From an uncultured delta proteobacterium (GTDB taxonomy: Bacteria; Desulfobacterota; Syntrophobacteria; BM002), in the NCBI GenBank assembly GCA_963712115.1, contig CAVQGX010000042.1, positions 1 through 64,000 on the forward strand: DNA of 64,000 nt, in the 5' to 3' direction. The notes beneath the pieces were generated by a model. The model had not been told where the DNA came from, searched no databases, and saw only the letters and a list, made by a program, of their open reading frames with translations. Below, one piece after another: positions 10,787-19,237 of this stretch; position 1 is the first letter of the stretch; every line of letters starts with the position of its first letter. The position numbers and the translations under genes are program-made.

Positions 10787-12192
10787 TGTTATTGACAAGT
10801 GATTTGTCCGGTTCATTTTGACAAATGAAATGTCCGCTCCATAGTTTTCAGTCCTCCCCCTGTTACCATGACGAGGCTTTAGCAACGGGGATACGGTTGG
10901 ATGCCTGGAGTTCAGTGCTGTGAGTTACTTGTTTTGGTACCGGCTTTCCTTTGGCATTGTAGCGACCCAGCAATCTAGTACCCCACCAGACAGTGTGTGT
11001 ATTATCGAGGTGTTTTCGCACAATAACACGTAAGCCTGCACAGGAGGCTCTTCCTGGCTGTTTGTCTATTTGGAGTCGCACCTTGTTCATGACCACAGTA
11101 TTGTCTTTAGCGACAGTGCGACCTTCTTCGAGACAGAGAATTTGGTTGAGGTTAGCGTTGCCAGCAGTGACAAAAGCACTTTGTGGGAGAGCTGGCTCTC
11201 TTTTGAATTCTTGATTGTACTGAGGCAAAAAGCGCTGACGCAGATACCGATTTGCCCCTTTGATGGTGGAGATTCTAGCGATTCGCAACTCATTAACCAA
11301 CCGATCCTGTAGGGTGCGATTGATGCGCTCACTTCGTCCTCGTGCTTGCGGCGAGTAGGAGGGAATATGCTCTACGCCGAGACGAGCCAAACAGCGTCCA
11401 ACTTGGGTGAGGTTTTCCTTGTCCACCCGACCTCCTGCCTTGGGAGTATGGAAGGCCCAGCTGGCCCGATCGGTATACAGTGCCATGGGGATCCCGTAGG
11501 TTTCTGTGACCTCGCCCAGGGCTGTCATCACCGCCCAGGTGGACTCTTTTTTCCACAGCTGGGCATACAGAAGACCGTTGGTGGCGTCATCGACTACGGT
11601 AATCATCGTTTGGTATTGCTCTGCGTTTCGGGCCAACCACCTATGACGGCTGCCATCCAGATGGAGCATTTCTCCAAACAGGGCCCGGCGCTCTCGTCTT
11701 TTGCGGTGTCTGCCGCGTTTACGTCTTTTTTTGACTAGGCCTGCTTCCTGGAGTGCTTTTTTGACAAAGCTGTATGAAAGGCTTACTTCATGTTCTCTGC
11801 GTGCAATCCCATGGAAATGGCGGACATTAAAGCCCTGATATCGCTCGCGGTAGAGGCGAAGTACCTTCTCAACCTCCGCCACCGGTGCCCGACGGGGCGA
11901 GGGTTTTCCTGTACGACGGTCCAAAAGACCGTCATAGCCATAGAGCTCGTAGCGCCCTCTCCAACGCCTCAAACTACGTGGGCTTATCGCCAAAATGTCA
12001 GCTGCTTGTGTCCACTTCAACTGTCCGCTCATCGCTCTAAGGATCACTTCTTGAATCTTCATTGCCCGCTCCAGCGCGGATGGCCCGTACAGTTTCATAG
12101 GCAACCCTCCTCGGTTACCTTTGTACAGCCTTCCGCCGAAAAGCGGACATTTCATTTGTTAAAATATGCGGTCACATTATGTACCAACTACA
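10787..12192 (-). mobile_element. IS1202-family (ISNCY) insertion sequence with 16-bp target duplication
   Basis: TGT...ACA ends; inverted internal ACAAATGAAATGTCCGC at both ends; direct repeat CCAAGATTCCTTAATC at 10771-10786 and 12193-12208. Confidence 0.9.
10863..12098 (-). CDS. DDE transposase (ISNCY/IS1202 family)
   Basis: N-terminal HTH; GEMLHLDGSRHRW...VDDAT...YTDR...SPQARGRSER..TLQDRL. Confidence 0.9.
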   Translation of the reverse strand: MKLYGPSALERAMKIQEVILRAMSGQLKWTQAADILAISPRSLRRWRGRYELYGYDGLLDRRTGKPSPRRAPVAEVEKVLRLYRERYQGFNVRHFHGIARREHEVSLSYSFVKKALQEAGLVKKRRKRGRHRKRRERRALFGEMLHLDGSRHRWLARNAEQYQTMITVVDDATNGLLYAQLWKKESTWAVMTALGEVTETYGIPMALYTDRASWAFHTPKAGGRVDKENLTQVGRCLARLGVEHIPSYSPQARGRSERINRTLQDRLVNELRIARISTIKGANRYLRQRFLPQYNQEFKREPALPQSAFVTAGNANLNQILCLEEGRTVAKDNTVVMNKVRLQIDKQPGRASCAGLRVIVRKHLDNTHTVWWGTRLLGRYNAKGKPVPKQVTHSTELQASNRIPVAKASSW

Positions 12193-12263
12193 CCAAGATT
12201 CCTTAATCTTGACTACCTACACTGCTTTGTGCCAATATGTCGACTCTGACCAAAGGAGGAAAC

Positions 12264-12701
12264 ATGAGCCGAGTTATAATCCTTGTCGCGATAACATTTG
12301 CACTTGTTACCTCGTTTGCCTTTGCAGACGAACAATACCGATGTACGGCCGACAGTGCCTCTGGTTTTTATTTCAACAGAGCAGCAGAGAGTTGGCAGCG
12401 CACAAAAATTAAGGCAGACTCTAAGTACACAATATCGAAGCCCGAGGGCAGTAAGTGGGCATTCGAGGTTCGCGAGATGGGAAACTTCTCTCCAATCGCT
12501 ACATGCCAGGATGGGTTCGATGAGGCGGGGTTTCTCTTTTGCAAGGCAACGGGTTACGATTTTAGATTCAACCGGAAGAACGGCCGTTATCTTGCCGCCT
12601 ATCTCCTCGGCTACTATAATGTCCTCCCAGGGGACAAGGAGATAACCGATGCAAAAAGTGCTAGGCCATATATAGAAATTGGCACGTGCTCCCCAATTTG
12701 A
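12264..12701 (+). CDS. Secreted hypothetical protein (cargo between A4 and B4)
   Basis: AGGAGG RBS, signal peptide MSRVIILVAITFALVTSFAFA, four Cys. Confidence 0.75.
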   Translation: MSRVIILVAITFALVTSFAFADEQYRCTADSASGFYFNRAAESWQRTKIKADSKYTISKPEGSKWAFEVREMGNFSPIATCQDGFDEAGFLFCKATGYDFRFNRKNGRYLAAYLLGYYNVLPGDKEITDAKSARPYIEIGTCSPI

Positions 12702-12791
12702 ACACCAGCCAAAGGCCTCTCCAGCCGCGCACCACAAACAACGTCCCTGGCCACAATACACTCACTTTCTCGGTGACTGTCAGTTGAAAGT

Positions 12792-12859
12792 AGACAAGAT
12801 CTTGTGCCAGATTCAAATCCAGCAAAATGTGAATTAAGGGATGTAATCCACAGTTTGCT
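12792..12859. repeat. Type-B repeated site B4 (most symmetric core)
   Basis: AGCAAAATGTGAATTA-AGGGATG-TAATCCACAGTTTGCT, arms 14/16 inverted-identical; box AGACAAGATCTTGTGC at 12792-12807. Confidence 0.9.
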
Positions 12860-13069
12860 CCCCCCATTTTTGCCACCCGCCCAAACTGCCAAAGATTGTG
12901 CTTTCTCTTGACAGCAAACGCCCCAGTAGCCTAATCTGAAACAAGTTCAATCTTCTCGTTCCAGCTCATTCTCGAGCGATCATATTTCTGAATCTGACCT
13001 GCCCTTGCCCTGTTCAAGTTCACTGCTTTTATCAGCTTGTCCTCTCCAACGCTTACAAGAGATATTGGC

Positions 13070-16157: not shown

Positions 16158-16961
16158 ATGAGCTTCGTCAAATCTATGCAATGGGTCAGTGAGAATCTTA
16201 CCAAGACAGTCGAGTTCTATGATGCAGAAATACTCATGGTCTATTTTGAAACGACCACATCTGCCGTGGAGAAGCTGCTTCCACCGCCGCTTGAGCCTGC
16301 ATCAGCGCCTCTCGGTATTGTCTTCGTCGCCAACTATCCCAGCACCAGTTTTCGTGTGAAGTATCTGGAAAGTGGCCTGTTCTTGCGTGCGGCTTTCCAG
16401 GGAGATGAAGGAAACTATTGCCTTTCGATGCCTGTTACGGACCACATGGCCATGATCCTTGGTCGCGAGATCTTCGGGTATCCCAAGAAAATCGGCCATA
16501 TCCACCTACAACGTAACGGGGAAAACGTTGAGGGCTGGACCGAGCGTCACGGAGTGCGTTTTCTGGATATCAAGGCAAGACTCACCGGCAGATTCAAGGA
16601 TGAGTACACGCAGAAAGTGATGGCTAAGGTCTTGCAGCCTCCCATGGATCCAATAATATACAACTTCAAGTACTTTCCTGCGCCGGAAAGGGTTGGCTTC
16701 GACTACAATCCACGCCTGGTAAGAGAAGTAGTGAATATACGCCCAAAGCAAGTGGAGATCGGCGAGGCTGAAATCACGCTCAGGTCCTCGGACCATGATC
16801 CGTGGGGCGACGTAGATGTTGTCCGTGTGCTGGGTGCGGTATATACCATAGGCGATAACACAATGCAGCCAGGCAGTGTCGTAGCTGAAGTGGATCAGAC
16901 GGAATTCGCACCGTACGCCTTCATGAAGCTAGATGTTTTCCATTCCACTGAGGATCAATAA
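16158..16961 (+). CDS. Acetoacetate decarboxylase family protein
   Basis: LLPPPLEP...YLESGL...GREIFGYPKKIG (Schiff-base Lys motif). Confidence 0.88.
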   Translation: MSFVKSMQWVSENLTKTVEFYDAEILMVYFETTTSAVEKLLPPPLEPASAPLGIVFVANYPSTSFRVKYLESGLFLRAAFQGDEGNYCLSMPVTDHMAMILGREIFGYPKKIGHIHLQRNGENVEGWTERHGVRFLDIKARLTGRFKDEYTQKVMAKVLQPPMDPIIYNFKYFPAPERVGFDYNPRLVREVVNIRPKQVEIGEAEITLRSSDHDPWGDVDVVRVLGAVYTIGDNTMQPGSVVAEVDQTEFAPYAFMKLDVFHSTEDQ

Positions 16962-16968
16962 GCTAGAT

Positions 16969-17036
16969 AGTAAACTTCATATTACATACTTTAATCCACA
17001 CTTCTGCTATTTTGATATATCCACCACATTTTGTGC
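16969..17036. repeat. Type-A repeated site A5
   Basis: AGTAAACTTCATATTA-CATACTT-TAATCCACACTTCTGC...CCACCACATTTTGTGC. Confidence 0.88.
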
Positions 17037-17142
17037 TGCGGCTTCTAGTGGGAAAAGTGATCATATGAAAAAGCTACCTCCTTCGAGGCCCTAGGTGTTA
17101 AATGGGCCTTGGGGATAACCAAAACAAAAGGAGGTAGCCACC

Positions 17143-18160
17143 ATGTATTATACCGGGATTGATTTACACAAGAAAACATCTTTTATTACTACAATCGATG
17201 CACGTGGAAAGATCGTCACCAGAGCCAACCTGCAGAATGTGGAAGAGAACATTTTGGCTTACTTTGCACAATCTAGGAGACGAGACTAAGATCGTCATTG
17301 AATCTATGGCATCGTGGTACTGGCTTTACGATCTTCTCACTGGAGAGGGTTTTGAGGTTGTGATCTCCAATCCAGTGAAGACCAAGGCCATTGCTTCGGC
17401 CAAGATCAAAAACGACAAGGTGGACTCTCATATGCTGGCTCAGCTTCTCAGGGCTGATTTGATCTCTACGGTTCATGTCAGCAGCCTTGAGACCCGTAAA
17501 CTCAAGGAACTTCTGCGTCATAGAAACAAATTGGTTCGAGATGCCACCCGCATGAAGAACCGTATCCATATGCTGCTGATGAAGAACAATTTTAGAAGTC
17601 CTTTTAGCGATCTTTTTGGTGTTCAGGGCCTGAGGTATCTGGAAGAGATTGACTTGCCAGATTACCATCGCCAACACGTTGAGACCTATCTTTTGCTCTA
17701 TGAAAGGCTCCAAGAGCAGATCGAGCCTTTAACCAAGAGAGTGCGTGCCCTGGCAAAGGAAAATCACACAGCCCAACTTCTTATGACTATCCCTGGCATT
17801 GGACCTATCACAGCCATGTTTATTGTAGCGGAGGTAGATGATATCTCCCGGTTTCGCTCATATCGGAACCTGGCTTCTTACGCCGGCCTGGTGCCTTCGT
17901 TAGATGCCAGTGCTGGCAAAGAGAAAAGGGGTAGGATCACCAAACAGGGATCCCGCTACCTGAGAACCGCTCTGGTCGAGGCTGCCCAGGCTGCAGCCAG
18001 AATGCAAAACTGCAGGTTGCGTGTTTTCTTCCGCAGAAGAATCGTCAAGGCGGGCTATCAAAAGGCCATTGTGGCCACAGCCCATAAGATCTTGCAGTAC
18101 GCTTTCTACGTTTGGAAAAACCAAACACCTTACAAGGAGACCTATCCTGTTTGCGCGTAA
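17143..18160 (+). pseudogene. IS110 transposase with one frameshift near 17263
   Basis: ATG at 17143 after AAGGAGG gives MYYTGIDLHK... The frame changes to ...IVIES...KNDKVDS...TIPGIG...YAGLVPS..SAG...GRITKQG. Confidence 0.85.
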
Positions 18161-18331
18161 CCCGTTAATTCACATGGCCCACAAAGGTGAGGCCGAGAAA
18201 GTGATTGGGACGCCGTTTATCAGATGCATGATAGTGTGACACCTTTGGGTGAACACGGATAGGTGTTTGGCGATGAGCCCAATATAGTGGGTCCAGGCGG
18301 ACAGTTAACAGAGCTTTTTTACTTGACAACC
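18161..18331 (+). ncRNA. Putative IS110 bridge/seek RNA region
   Basis: 3' non-coding end containing TTAATTCACA and GAAAGTG (match the target site) and ATAGGTG (matches the donor end). Confidence 0.6.
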
Positions 18332-18344
18332 AGCTTTTTCATAG

Positions 18345-18377
18345 GTGTGAATTAAGGGATGTCATCTAAACTTTGCT
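18345..18377. repeat. Type-B repeated site B5 (right part)
   Basis: GTGTGAATTA-AGGGATG-TCATCTAAACTTTGCT. Confidence 0.85.
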
Positions 18378-18594
18378 CCCACCCCTCCATGCTGTTCACC
18401 TCACTTTCTCCCTGGTCATTCACGCCAAGTTTTGGTTACAAGTTCTTCGTAAACTATTTTTCAATGTGTCCGACTTTACCCATCTTTTTCCTAGAGATTC
18501 ATTATACTTACCAATCTATATTATTCTAAACTTGGTATCAGTTTTGCATCTTAAAACAAAGCGAAACTGCATTAATGACAAAAGTCAACGATTA

Positions 18595-18670
18595 GGGCGC
18601 GTGGCCGAGTGGTCAAGGCAACGGTGTGCATAGCCGCTAGTCCCTAGTTCAATTCTAGGCGCGCCCTCCA
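18595..18670 (+). tRNA. tRNA-Cys(GCA)-like, atypical anticodon arm
   Basis: Acceptor GGGCGCG/CGCGCCC, U73 and encoded CCA; D arm GCC..GGC; T arm CCTAG-TTCAATT-CTAGG; anticodon loop GTGCATA. Confidence 0.75.
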
Positions 18671-19145: not shown

Positions 19146-19237
19146 AGTCCGAAAAAGGCAAAGCACTCGAAAGAGTGTGACGCAAAGCCACTGGCCTAAG
19201 CCCCGGATCTCCGGGAGATGGTCGCAGGGCTGCCGGG
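19146..19237 (+). promoter_or_regulatory. c-di-GMP-I (GEMM) riboswitch
   Basis: GGCAAA-GCACTC-GAAA-GAGTGT-GACGCAAAGCCACTGGCCTAA...ATGGTCGCAGGGCTGCCG. Confidence 0.88.

Follow-up and report, generated by a model that had tools for sequence, protein, structure and literature searches.

An IS1111-type insertion element in a repeated extragenic site, and the covariation of its putative guide segments with its targets

We have analysed here an insertion sequence (IS) of the IS110 family that interrupts one copy of a short repeated site in the genome of an uncultured delta proteobacterium (contig CAVQGX010000042.1; the window is the whole stretch of 64,000 nt that was analysed). The locus raises the question of how the element finds this site, and of what kind of site it finds. 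The reading that we favor, and to which we give a probability of about nine in ten, is that this is an IS1111-type element with an RNA, derived from the non-coding region 3' of its transposase gene, that guides the transposase to the left arm of a multi-copy site.

The element and its transposase

The IS occupies positions 17058–18345 of the window (1288 nt, counting a single TG of the two junctions). The left junction reads GGGAAAAGTG up to position 17059 followed by ATCATATG, and the right junction reads CATAGG up to position 18345 followed by TGTGAATTAAGGGATG, with a GTG ambiguity of 3 nt at the junctions that makes the element ends uncertain by 3 nt or less. TG precedes the left end in every relative in which a left end was found, except for L090, which was misdetected.

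Membership of the IS110 family is clear from the protein. Pfam identifies both DEDD_Tnp_IS110 (PF01548) and Transposase_20 (PF02371) in the window, the score with the NCBIfam model NF033542 ('IS110 family RNA-guided transposase') is 270 bits (cut-off 140), and the IS621 transposase of solved structure (8wt6) gives a match spanning both domains with an E value of 2e-13. Residues D7, E53, D91, and D94 are invariant in all seven aligned relatives. The C-terminal serine motif of the intact protein is GLVPSLDASAG, in which the residue following the serine is A and not G, and this serine aligns with the ESG serine of IS621, which we take to be the catalytic residue of that enzyme.

We assign the element to the IS1111 type on the basis of its anatomy. 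Published members of this subgroup have subterminal inverted repeats of about 11–13 bp (range 7–17 bp), a left end that is short relative to the right end, with the longer non-coding region lying 3' of the transposase gene, a transposase of 330–350 residues, and asymmetric extensions beyond the repeats (7 or 6 bp at the left end, 3 bp at the right end). The repeats here, TATGAAAAAGCT and AGCTTTTTCATA, are 12 nt long and 100% complementary, the left end is 83 nt as compared to 185 nt for the right end (18161–18345) downstream of the transposase gene, and the intact transposase is 338 residues long, all of which fit the published ranges. The extensions outside the repeats total 8 nt, which the GTG ambiguity permits to be divided as 7+1, 6+2, 5+3, or 4+4. 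The original prediction of an IS1111-type IS110 element is borne out by the Pfam domains and the repeats, with refined boundaries. Matches obtained by tblastn against plasmids are all below 40% identity and labelled just 'IS110 family', and do not resolve the subgroup.

The transposase reading frame of the window copy is broken by a single extra base at 17268, as judged against the intact copy on contig C41, leaving open frames at 17143–17289 and 17159–18160. This base is absent from the contigs of relatives in all four of the public runs compared, and the frameshift is private to the window copy. Any further movement of this copy would consequently depend on transposase from the intact copies on C41 or C48.

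Table 1. Features of the IS locus and its flanks, in window coordinates.
Feature	Position	Strand	Remarks
A-type site core	16981–17003	-	Left arm of the imperfect palindromic A'-B unit of about 100 nt that is split by the IS
Unit interior and left flank of the B site	17004–17057	+	Includes 6 nt partly matched by the left target guide
Left copy of the TG common to both junctions	17058–17059	+	Inferred crossover core
Short left end of the IS	17060–17142	+	Subterminal inverted repeat at 17064–17075; conserved in relatives
Inverted repeat in the left end	17073–17083 with 17128–17138		Able to pair with the ribosome-binding site; conserved in relatives
IS110-family DEDD transposase gene	17143–18160	+	Frame broken at 17268
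Target-binding domain of a putative seekRNA/bridge RNA	18161–18209	+	Outer stem 18161–18164 with 18206–18209; inner hairpin 18175–18195
Right target guide TTAATTCACA	18165–18174	+	Complementary to top strand TGTGAATTAA at 18346–18355
Left target guide	18196–18203	+	Sense of left flank plus TG; 6/8 in this copy, 7–8/8 in the other three
Putative donor-binding domain	18211–18272	+	Multiloop closed by 18211–18215 with 18268–18272
TTGACA box by the right end	18323–18328	+	Kept in relatives
Right subterminal inverted repeat and terminal GG	18332–18345	+	Repeat at 18332–18343
Right TG copy and remainder of the B site	18346–18374	+	Arm, 7-nt spacer AGGGATG, degenerate right arm

A scan of 16900–18500 for promoters and terminators yields nothing above shuffled sequences, and no complete promoter in the linear IS. 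The TTGACA box near the right end could possibly be the -35 element of a promoter that is completed at the circle junction, as in an excised form of the element. No circle junction of the IS is present among the joints listed for contigs of the public runs; joints in those runs that skip about 1331–1342 nt are other A'-B units and not an empty version of the IS locus. Rfam searches of the whole window at the gathering threshold identify no family inside the IS. Their sole matches in the window are a tRNA (18595–18667) and a c-di-GMP-I riboswitch (19147–19237).

Target specificity and the putative guide RNA

The IS sits in the left arm of a B site, one of two types (A and B) of a repeated site. 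The joined flanks of the element occur at 2232 (three mismatches) and 7270 (two mismatches) where none are expected, in agreement with the original observation that removal of the IS restores a B site, and the 13-nt site core is found five times in the window against an expectation of 0.09. Insertion is site-specific, as is evident from the flanks of other copies. The genome carries four copies of the IS and all four lie at the same position of A or B sites; in congeners, three of four right junctions are in A or B sites, with the fourth a degraded A-type remnant (L040), and four of six left junctions have A/B-type arms. Copies in metagenomes are also in A/B sites.

The nature of the 3' non-coding region suggests how this specificity may be achieved. 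By analogy to published relatives, the transposase would be a DEDD/RuvC-like recombinase with a C-terminal serine domain that works together with an RNA from this region, and we infer that such an RNA is made, is bound by the protein, and directs recombination. To the right of the crossover, the 5' segment of its target loop would pair with the top strand; to the left, the 3' segment would pair with the bottom strand, and the two pairings would overlap at the TG core. In this way the left arm of a multi-copy 29-bp site, of types A and B, would be the programmed target of the element, and guide alleles that differ by a single base would send sister copies to sites of type A or B or to variant sites.

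The three strings on which the RNA-guide proposal was first based, TTAATTCACA, GAAAGTG (18197–18203), and ATAGGTG (18259–18265), are all present at these positions, and the complementarity to the right flank extends further, such that the 13 nt at 18162–18174 are 92% complementary to 18346–18358. The likeness of GAAAGTG to the left side of the target holds to the extent that the slightly longer left guide matches the flank, but the window copy fits its own flank at only six of eight positions, and three other genomic sites with a perfect right-guide match suit its left guide better (seven or eight of eight).

Guides and flanks covary. In a set of nine elements, eight have scores of 14–18 of 18 for their own guide and flank, whereas the off-diagonal mean is 10.0, and the observed sum is reached by only one of 200000 permutations. 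In a larger set of 41 distinct relatives from genomes and metagenomes that fall into 14 target classes, the median score is 16 of 18 with own flanks and 7 with unrelated flanks, and 33 of the 41 reach at least 14. Between target classes just three of 1478 pairs reach 14 (median 7), and none of 20000 permutations of the guide-flank assignments reaches the observed score. Not all elements conform to this pattern: eight of the 41 score below 14, L052 has a right flank that matches its guide at only three of ten positions, and L009, L082, and L084 fit their guides only after a shift of 1 nt. The right flank is without the initial TG in one lineage (seven loci) and in L092, so that the 2-nt core is not general.

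Covariation extends to the level of single bases. Among copies that target A/B sites and have a right flank, 10 of 11 match the right guide at 9–10 of 10 positions, and the right-guide allele tracks the site, with TTAATTCACA found for GTGAATTA, TTAATCCACA for GTGGATTA, and TTAATTTACA for GTAAATTA; single-base variants thereby follow A-type, B-type, and variant sites. Copies that are 91–96% identical within one genome differ in their guides on this same scale. The distal five nucleotides of the left guide track even the variable flank of each individual copy, agreeing at 32 of 40 positions, which is equalled by 12 of 40320 possible assignments.

The placement of these segments within a predicted RNA fold is consistent with a role in target recognition. 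In the RNAalifold prediction both target guides fall outside the stems, in an internal loop that separates a conserved outer stem from the inner hairpin. Across 51 distinct sequences the inner hairpin has four pairs with compensatory changes, and its cells are paired in 93.5% of instances compared to 30–47% with slid partners, although these counts rest on an alignment fitted to the model itself. The minimum-free-energy fold of the non-coding region taken alone is no better than that of shuffled sequences (z -1.0). Contigs from RNA libraries of the public runs cover IS relatives including the non-coding region, and as these libraries may hold DNA they are not proof of transcription. The covariance model (R1) has no match in a second IS110-family element on contig C54.

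We also considered that the transposase protein alone picks the target, with the matching non-coding segments being passive, for example carried along or copied at insertion. The tracking of locus-specific variable flanks by the left guide is a pattern that flank copying could also yield. However, we regard this explanation as highly improbable: a covariance-model search (55 hits from 92 sources) finds the segments at fixed positions within a conserved, covarying fold, the two segments have opposite senses, one reverse-complementary and the other a direct copy, which is what pairing to two strands demands, and published experiments with IS1111 relatives found the RNA to be essential and reprogrammable. 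The covariation of guides with flanks, together with their position in the loop, thus supports guidance by an RNA as first proposed.

The second domain of this RNA would correspond to the junction of an excised circle, with one segment matching the right end plus TG and another matching the initial bases of the left end. ATAGGTG is identical to the right end plus TG, and ATGAT (18228–18232) is complementary to the first five nucleotides of the left end, core excluded. The proposed donor role of ATAGGTG is partly supported. The segment does not vary where the right end does not, and in L092, the one diverged relative (56% identity, different ends), it has changed together with the end, all three differing positions of the two proposed donor pairings being compensated. 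Against this, L096 has one uncompensated change in the donor segments, L092 is the only independent covarying lineage, and the segments overlap predicted helices 4 and 6, of which the helix partly overlapped by ATAGGTG has little covariation support.

The nature of the A and B sites

Each of the sites consists of one arm of 11 nt, a spacer of 7 nt that occurs in two fixed types, and a second arm that is degenerate. There are about 150 copies (155 counted), which are extragenic and confined to one genus and one sister genus, and their presence in 16 of 17 congeners supports, at the genus level, the expectation that the site is long-lived and multi-copy. Most are solo, but 17 paired units are found among the 155 sites, in two discrete sizes of 96–97 nt (12 units) and 153–154 nt (5 units) with inverted termini; the A/B consensus and the unit termini begin ATTAC and end GTAAT. 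By eye, the reverse strand of the B arm has a sigma-54-like TGGCAC motif, which we discounted because its spacing is off by one. The proposal that each 29-nt site forms a stable hairpin is likewise not supported, with z values of -0.02 to -0.98 for three sites.

There are several plausible models for the origin of these sites. In one, to which we give somewhat less than even odds, they are non-autonomous transposon remnants (MITE-like) or REP-like extragenic palindromes that the IS hunts as repeats, much as ISPa11 and ISPpu9 seek out REPs, or IS4321 and IS5075 the inverted repeats of transposons. The discrete sizes and inverted termini of the paired units, the extragenic location, and the copy number and narrow distribution are all as expected, and targeting of REP sequences and inverted repeats by IS1111 members is published. 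However, the predominance of solo sites and the weak folding of single sites do not fit well, and an association with a transposase is not apparent. The genome has four Y1-transposase genes, none of which is flanked by A/B sites or has one within 1.5 kb, and we reject a RAYT/REP association on grounds of adjacency. The lone transposase-like gene between A' and B sites encodes a 430-residue HTH protein (window 10863–12155), which we reject as the transposase of the sites as it belongs to a separate seven-copy IS; five of the other copies of that IS are without an A/B site within 3 kb, and one (on C53) has sites on one side only.

A second model, possible but in our view doubtful, is that these are sites of site-specific recombination that shuffles chromosomal gene modules, analogous to dif modules, with XerC and XerD the sole classical candidates for the recombinases. 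The arm and spacer organization suggests such a role, and one 2.2-kb module, delimited by a B core on one side and an inverted A core on the other, is found in three different contexts, with the adjoining module beginning within the same A core. Genes between sites are accessory, and the gene upstream of the IS is found in none of 17 congeners by DNA search. Of 655 internal endpoints of intragenomic repeats, 57 are within 40 nt of a site as compared to 0.25% expected, although both the IS copies and the fact that the sites are conserved inflate this enrichment. Two site-bearing single-contig congeners, which are 87–88% complete by marker genes, hold just two tyrosine recombinases each, of XerD and XerC size, and no serine recombinase is found in the three genomes searched. 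This notwithstanding, XerCD dif-type sites have an 11-6-11 organization with a conserved XerD arm, whereas the A/B spacer is 7 nt and the inner arm motifs are unlike published deltaproteobacterial dif sites, with only (T)ATGTAA in common; moreover, homologous recombination between 20–60-nt repeats could make the same boundaries.

A more specific version, which we advance as speculation and consider unlikely, is that the A/B sites are the crossovers of an undescribed module-shuffling system of the chromosome that is genus-wide in sediment Desulfobacterota-like bacteria, with XerC and XerD the sole classical recombinases in the two congeners. The RNA-guided IS would then be a specialized parasite of this system, its guide alleles having diversified base by base to types A, B, and even the variable flanks of individual copies.

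The suggested link to attC, by which the repeated site would be an integron attC site and the IS a member of the IS1111-attC group, merits scarcely any credence and is rejected: there are same-orientation arrays behind small accessory genes, an integron integrase in the genome, and paired units that fold as long imperfect hairpins (z -3.2), but the sites in the array adjoining intI are different ones, namely canonical attC sites about 115 nt long with ...TAAC / GTTA... ends, no such boxes are seen by eye in the A/B consensus or the unit termini, and it is a different IS110-family element, on C54, that occupies the attC-like half site. Neither the integron, nor RAYT genes, nor any transposase identified in this analysis accounts for the A/B family.

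Relationship to known systems

Because the seekRNA and bridge RNA mechanisms were published in 2024, the IS is not itself new. What it provides is a clear case of guide retargeting in nature, within a kind of system that is already known. It offers one IS1111 subfamily with constant donor ends, at least 14 natural target classes, and one relative with co-changed donor segments, a ready comparative set for the guide-design rules of IS1111-type elements, which are less worked out than those of IS621. It also presents single-base retargeting among copies in one genome and in close relatives, including guides tuned to the flanks of individual repeat copies, and the IS serves as an independent marker of about 150 related sites, spread across the genus, between which shuffled modules of accessory genes lie.

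The closest comparison is with ISEc11 and ISXne4, IS1111-family elements that use a seekRNA (Siddiquee et al. 2024, PMC11187229). In the portions of that paper drawn on here, these elements share the non-coding region 3' of the transposase gene, the subterminal inverted repeats, a transposase of about 340 residues, a top-strand match that lies 5' of the bottom-strand match with the two overlapping in the target, and natural retargeting, there between relatives of about 70% identity with the stems kept. They differ, in the same portions, in that their target is a short unique sequence whereas ours is multi-copy, in that retargeting here also occurs by single bases among copies 91–96% identical in one genome, in having extensions past the repeats that total 9–10 nt rather than 8, and in the serine motif, which is SG, TG, or TA and not the SA seen here.

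IS621 and its bridge RNA (Durrant et al. 2024, PMC11208160; structures 8wt6 and others) resemble our element in the DEDD and serine recombinase (the match at E 2e-13) and, in the sections of that source used here, in the two-domain logic of the RNA, with left guides of top-strand sense, right guides complementary, and the core within the target pairings. By the same sections, the IS621 RNA is encoded in the left end, whereas ours would be encoded in the right end with the guide order reversed, the donor nucleotides here are predicted in a multiloop, as that source reports for many IS1111 members, and the right donor match is only 5 nt and without the core.

In its choice of target the element is reminiscent of ISPa11, ISPpu9, and ISPpu10, IS1111-type elements inserted in REP sequences (PMC11187229, PMC12288879, PMC11208160). 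As these are described in the excerpts used, both cases have an IS1111-type element, RNA-guided by proposal here, that is present several times per genome and lands in an extragenic palindromic repeat of high copy number, but the A/B repeat is without a link to a RAYT-type Y1 transposase, has two spacer types, and marks the boundaries of shuffled gene modules. ISKpn4, ISPst6, and ISPa25 of the IS1111-attC group, and IS4321 and IS5075, which hunt Tn21 inverted repeats, similarly insert at one fixed position and orientation in a site for recombination or transposition that is present on many replicons, although the A/B target is neither attC nor a demonstrated transposon end. We note that the same genome does hold an IS110-family element, that on C54, in an attC-like half site.

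Finally, dif modules and the IS1202-family elements that target XerCD sites (PMC10132070, PMC13141974) provide a parallel to the locus as a whole. In the parts of these papers that bear on it, modules lie between inversely oriented short sites of recombination type, and an IS family is specialized on those sites. Those systems are found on Acinetobacter plasmids, with 28-bp XerC/XerD sites and DDE elements that insert beside the site, whereas at the A/B sites the Xer link is hypothetical, and the IS inserts within the arm of the site, to which we propose that it is guided by an RNA.

Anatomy of the element and its genomic copies

The IS (17058-18345) carries an IS110-family DEDD domain and a Transposase_20 domain, encoded jointly by open frames at 17143-17289 and 17159-18160, and the frame of this copy is broken by one extra base, 17268. 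Across the 70 contigs (4.9 Mb) of the genome there are four copies, at 100, 96, 91 and 91% identity; an intact 338-aa protein is encoded by the C41 and C48 copies, and the copy on C36 has a 1-nt deletion near the position equivalent to 17268. Base 17268 is absent from relatives' contigs in four of four public runs, and the frameshift is therefore private to the window copy. Against the NCBIfam model 'IS110 family RNA-guided transposase' (cut-off 140) the intact protein reaches 270 bits, and it aligns with the solved IS621 transposase over both domains (E 2e-13).

At the left junction the sequence is ...GGGAAAAGTG/ATCATATGAAAAAGCT, with the G at 17059, and at the right junction it is AGCTTTTTCATAGG/TGTGAATTAAGGGATG, with the final G of CATAGG at 18345; each junction and guide string quoted in the original prediction is present where it was placed. 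By literature criteria the element has IS1111-subgroup anatomy (subterminal repeats, a short left and a long right end, here 83 and 185 nt, and a 330-350-aa transposase). Only the terminal extensions lack a clean fit, totalling 8 nt (published, 9-10), the exact ends being ambiguous owing to the GTG common to both junctions.

We also note an inverted repeat (17073-17083 and 17128-17138) through which the transposase gene's ribosome-binding site pairs with the region beside the subterminal repeat; in the relative L092 (620-700) both arms are changed and pairing is retained. The sequence suggests translational masking of read-through transcripts. A ~95-nt element in a related genome (L037, G016:C172:5513-5609), in an A/B-type context, has the IS left end fused to its own reverse complement, perhaps as a hairpin-shaped IS derivative formed by deletion.

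Features of the IS and of the repeated A and B sites
Feature	Position or sequence	Basis
Subterminal inverted repeat, 12 nt, perfect	17064-17075 and 18332-18343	
Outer stem	18161-18164 with 18206-18209	RNAalifold
Inner hairpin	18175-18195	RNAalifold
Donor-side multiloop domain	closed by 18211-18215 with 18268-18272	predicted
Site part 1, 11-nt arm	AGTGTGAATTA or AGTGTGGATTA	
Site part 2, 7-nt spacer	AGGGATG in 89/101 B; AAGTATG in 45/51 A	
Site part 3, second arm, degenerate		

Covariation of guide segments with flanking targets

In an alignment of the four copies, what little variation the 3' region has falls in two segments, both of which change together with the flanks of their own copy. These are the right guide (18165-18174), complementary to the top strand, and the left guide (18196-18203), in top-strand sense; 18162-18174 is 92% complementary to 18346-18358 over 13 nt. 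Relatives were gathered from 14 loci in species genomes and 80 in metagenomes, and a covariance model built from ten sequences matched 55 of the 92 sources searched. The model alignment supplied the guide segments, and the conserved IS ends served to locate the flanks. Both flanks were present in 42 matches, which represent 41 distinct combinations and 14 target classes. The score of a guide pair against its own flanks has a median of 16/18 and is at least 14 in 33 of the 41, compared with a median of 7 for cross-class pairs, among which 14 is reached by 3/1478, and the observed sum was attained by none of 20000 permutations of the 41 combinations. An earlier nine-element matrix agrees (1/200000 permutations, namely the identity itself). 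The proposal that the IS is RNA-programmed against the repeated site is thus supported, at the level of sequence, by guides that covary with their own flanks. Eight of the 41 combinations score below 14. The right flank of L052, which is hybrid-like, matches at 3/10, the left end of L090 was misdetected, and at three loci (L009, L082 and L084) the guide fit requires a 1-nt shift.

Within the A/B-targeting clade, defined by at least 82% protein identity, the right guide matches 9-10 of 10 positions in 10 of the 11 copies having a right flank, and site type is tracked by the guide allele: B sites (GTGAATTA) by TTAATTCACA, A sites or the B right arm (GTGGATTA) by TTAATCCACA, and GTAAATTA by TTAATTTACA. 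In the left guide, the five distal bases face the variable part of the site; their agreement with their own locus is 32/40 positions, which is equalled by 12 of 40320 assignments. The 10-mer TGTGAATTAA occurs 77 times in the genome (~9 expected), and a given left guide fits few of these sites at 7-8/8. In the C41 copy, left guide and left flank agree at 8/8, with the best unoccupied site for that guide at no more than 7/8; in the window copy they agree at only 6/8.

Folding with RNAalifold (ten sequences) predicts an internal loop containing both guides, flanked by the outer stem and the covarying inner hairpin, so that the matches are predicted to sit in a loop when checked as the original prediction had proposed. 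In 51 distinct sequences, in an alignment fitted to the model, four pairs of the hairpin have compensatory changes, and overall pairing is 93.5% of cells as against 30-47% with partners slid by 1-3 columns. The top-strand-complementary segment precedes the other, and the two target matches share a TG overlap. At eight loci (L079, L083, L085-L088 and L096, of one lineage, and L092) the right flank begins with CA or CG, not TG, and the left flank still ends with TG; the guides pair exactly with the CA/CG bases, and the target matches therefore abut without overlap. Crossover geometry may differ within the subfamily.

In the predicted donor domain, ATAGGTG equals the right end followed by TG, and ATGAT is the complement of the left end's initial five bases. 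Neither segment varies among relatives having the same ends, and both are informative only where the ends differ. At L092 (56% identity, different ends) the segments are ATAGATG and TTAAT, with 3/3 differing positions compensated. ATAGGTG and ATGAT are likely donor-matching segments; the match of ATAGGTG to the donor end, claimed previously, holds for the right end plus TG and in the compensation at L092, and is weakened by one uncompensated donor-side change at L096 and by the overlap of both segments with RNAalifold-predicted helices having little covariation support. Donor nucleotides lie in multiloops for many IS1111 members, according to Durrant et al. (PMC11208160).

The repeated sites as target

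Removal of the IS rebuilds a B site, as predicted, in that the flank-joined string matches 2232 (three mismatches) and 7270 (two), with 0 expected. The window contains five occurrences of the 13-nt core, each on the + strand (0.09 expected), and alignment of four uninterrupted sites gives a core of ~30 nt. When other copies and their flanks were aligned, all four genomic copies were found in A/B sites, ...AGTG preceding the left end and TGT(G/A)(A/G)ATTA... following the right; the C48 copy lies in reverse orientation in a B-site right arm, reading TGTGGATTA on that strand. In 21 more genomes of the same family, where most IS matches are fragments ending at contig ends, three of four right junctions fall within sites of type B (G015, G009) or A (G009), the fourth (G011) being a degraded A-type remnant, and four of six left junctions have A/B-type arms (G014, G018, G016, G010), the two lacking them being from G012 (L039, L045).

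The description of the site as multi-copy and long-lived is supported, at genus level, by a genomic count of 101 B sites and 51 A sites (155 in total counting contig edges) and by a site 22-mer (at most two mismatches) present in 16/17 congeners and 1/1 sister-genus genome. It was absent from 22 other genomes (3 from other genera of the family, 19 from other families), and a reversed control pattern gave 0 matches in the same search. A semi-conserved stretch of ~45 nt lies upstream of the site. The majority of sites are solo, in same-orientation arrays following small genes, and inverted A'-B pairs (A' being an inverted A) form 17 units, whose sizes fall into two discrete groups, 96-97 nt (12) and 153-154 nt (5). 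At least three families of 30-40 nt recur among the sequences just after the B core (e.g. window 18366-18410, C3:122195 and C5:12305), and one of these, together with the B right arm, makes an 11-bp inverted repeat.

Some sites bound modules: C3:121403-123633, delimited by site cores, recurs at C3:127230-129442 and C39:10268-6917, and the adjoining module begins within the same A core. Of 655 internal endpoints of repeats measuring 300 nt or more, 57 are no further than 40 nt from a site, versus 0.25% expected, an enrichment inflated by conservation of the A/B sites themselves and by IS copies. Window genes between sites encode a bactofilin, a GDSL lipase, two PilZ proteins, a sulfatase, a cyclase-TPR protein and an acetoacetate decarboxylase, the last having no match in 17 congeners. 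By BLAST clustering, small PilZ-like proteins (19 members) make up the largest gene family near A/B sites, with two window members confirmed by Pfam. The IS-bearing site is followed 250 nt downstream by a tRNA gene (18595-18667), and a c-di-GMP-I riboswitch (19147-19237, 76.9 bits) lies ahead of the ORF at 19218.

The A/B sites are candidate recombination sites for Xer enzymes, because the tyrosine recombinases of two single-contig, site-bearing congeners number only two each, of XerD and XerC size, and no serine recombinase was found in three genomes searched. However, the spacer is 7 nt, and only (T)ATGTAA is common to the A/B site and published deltaproteobacterial dif sites; alternatively, the sites may be a MITE- or REP-like repeat. 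An integron attC identity was rejected, as canonical attC sites beside the integrase on C27 differ in sequence, and so was a tie to Y1 transposases, with 0/4 Y1 genes linked to A/B sites.

The integron integrase gene is complete (C27:2356-3300; 487 bits versus TIGR02249, cut-off 265), and at least four canonical attC sites (~115 nt) with small cassettes lie upstream (C27:1-3300) in an array running past the contig end. AttC-like 3' halves (...CCGACTGCAGCGAGTGGTTA) occur ~52 nt past A-type sites at C13:18542, C27:118312, C42:183943 and C54:12901, and integron-type and A/B-type sites are thus physically joined in places. A second, distinct IS110-family element (L132, C54:~11400-12960, minus strand), with a 3' non-coding region of ~400 nt, sits in an attC-like 3' half site directly past a truncated A site, part of a 153-nt unit; the covariance model built for the window IS gave no match to it. 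The 430-aa protein encoded at 10863-12155 (minus strand), with N-terminal HTH_28/HTH_32 domains and seven genomic copies at 99.5-100% identity, belongs to a recently active IS unrelated to A/B sites.

Comparison with known guided elements

The IS is of IS1111 type and is very probably a seekRNA/bridge-RNA-guided element, a new member of a kind already known. Its guide order is that of IS1111 seekRNAs, with the top-strand-complementary segment first and overlapping matches, as presented in PMC11187229, and the order in IS621 is the opposite (PMC11208160). Natural retargeting between IS1111 relatives of ~70% identity also appears in PMC11187229. Among the matches listed in a literature search, no IS1111 member targets Xer-type or module-bounding sites, and there such sites are targeted only by IS1202-family elements (PMC10132070, PMC13141974). 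This case adds depth, with 14 target classes on a single constant donor, retargeting at single-base scale inside one genome and its close relatives, one co-varying donor example, and an unexplained target family.
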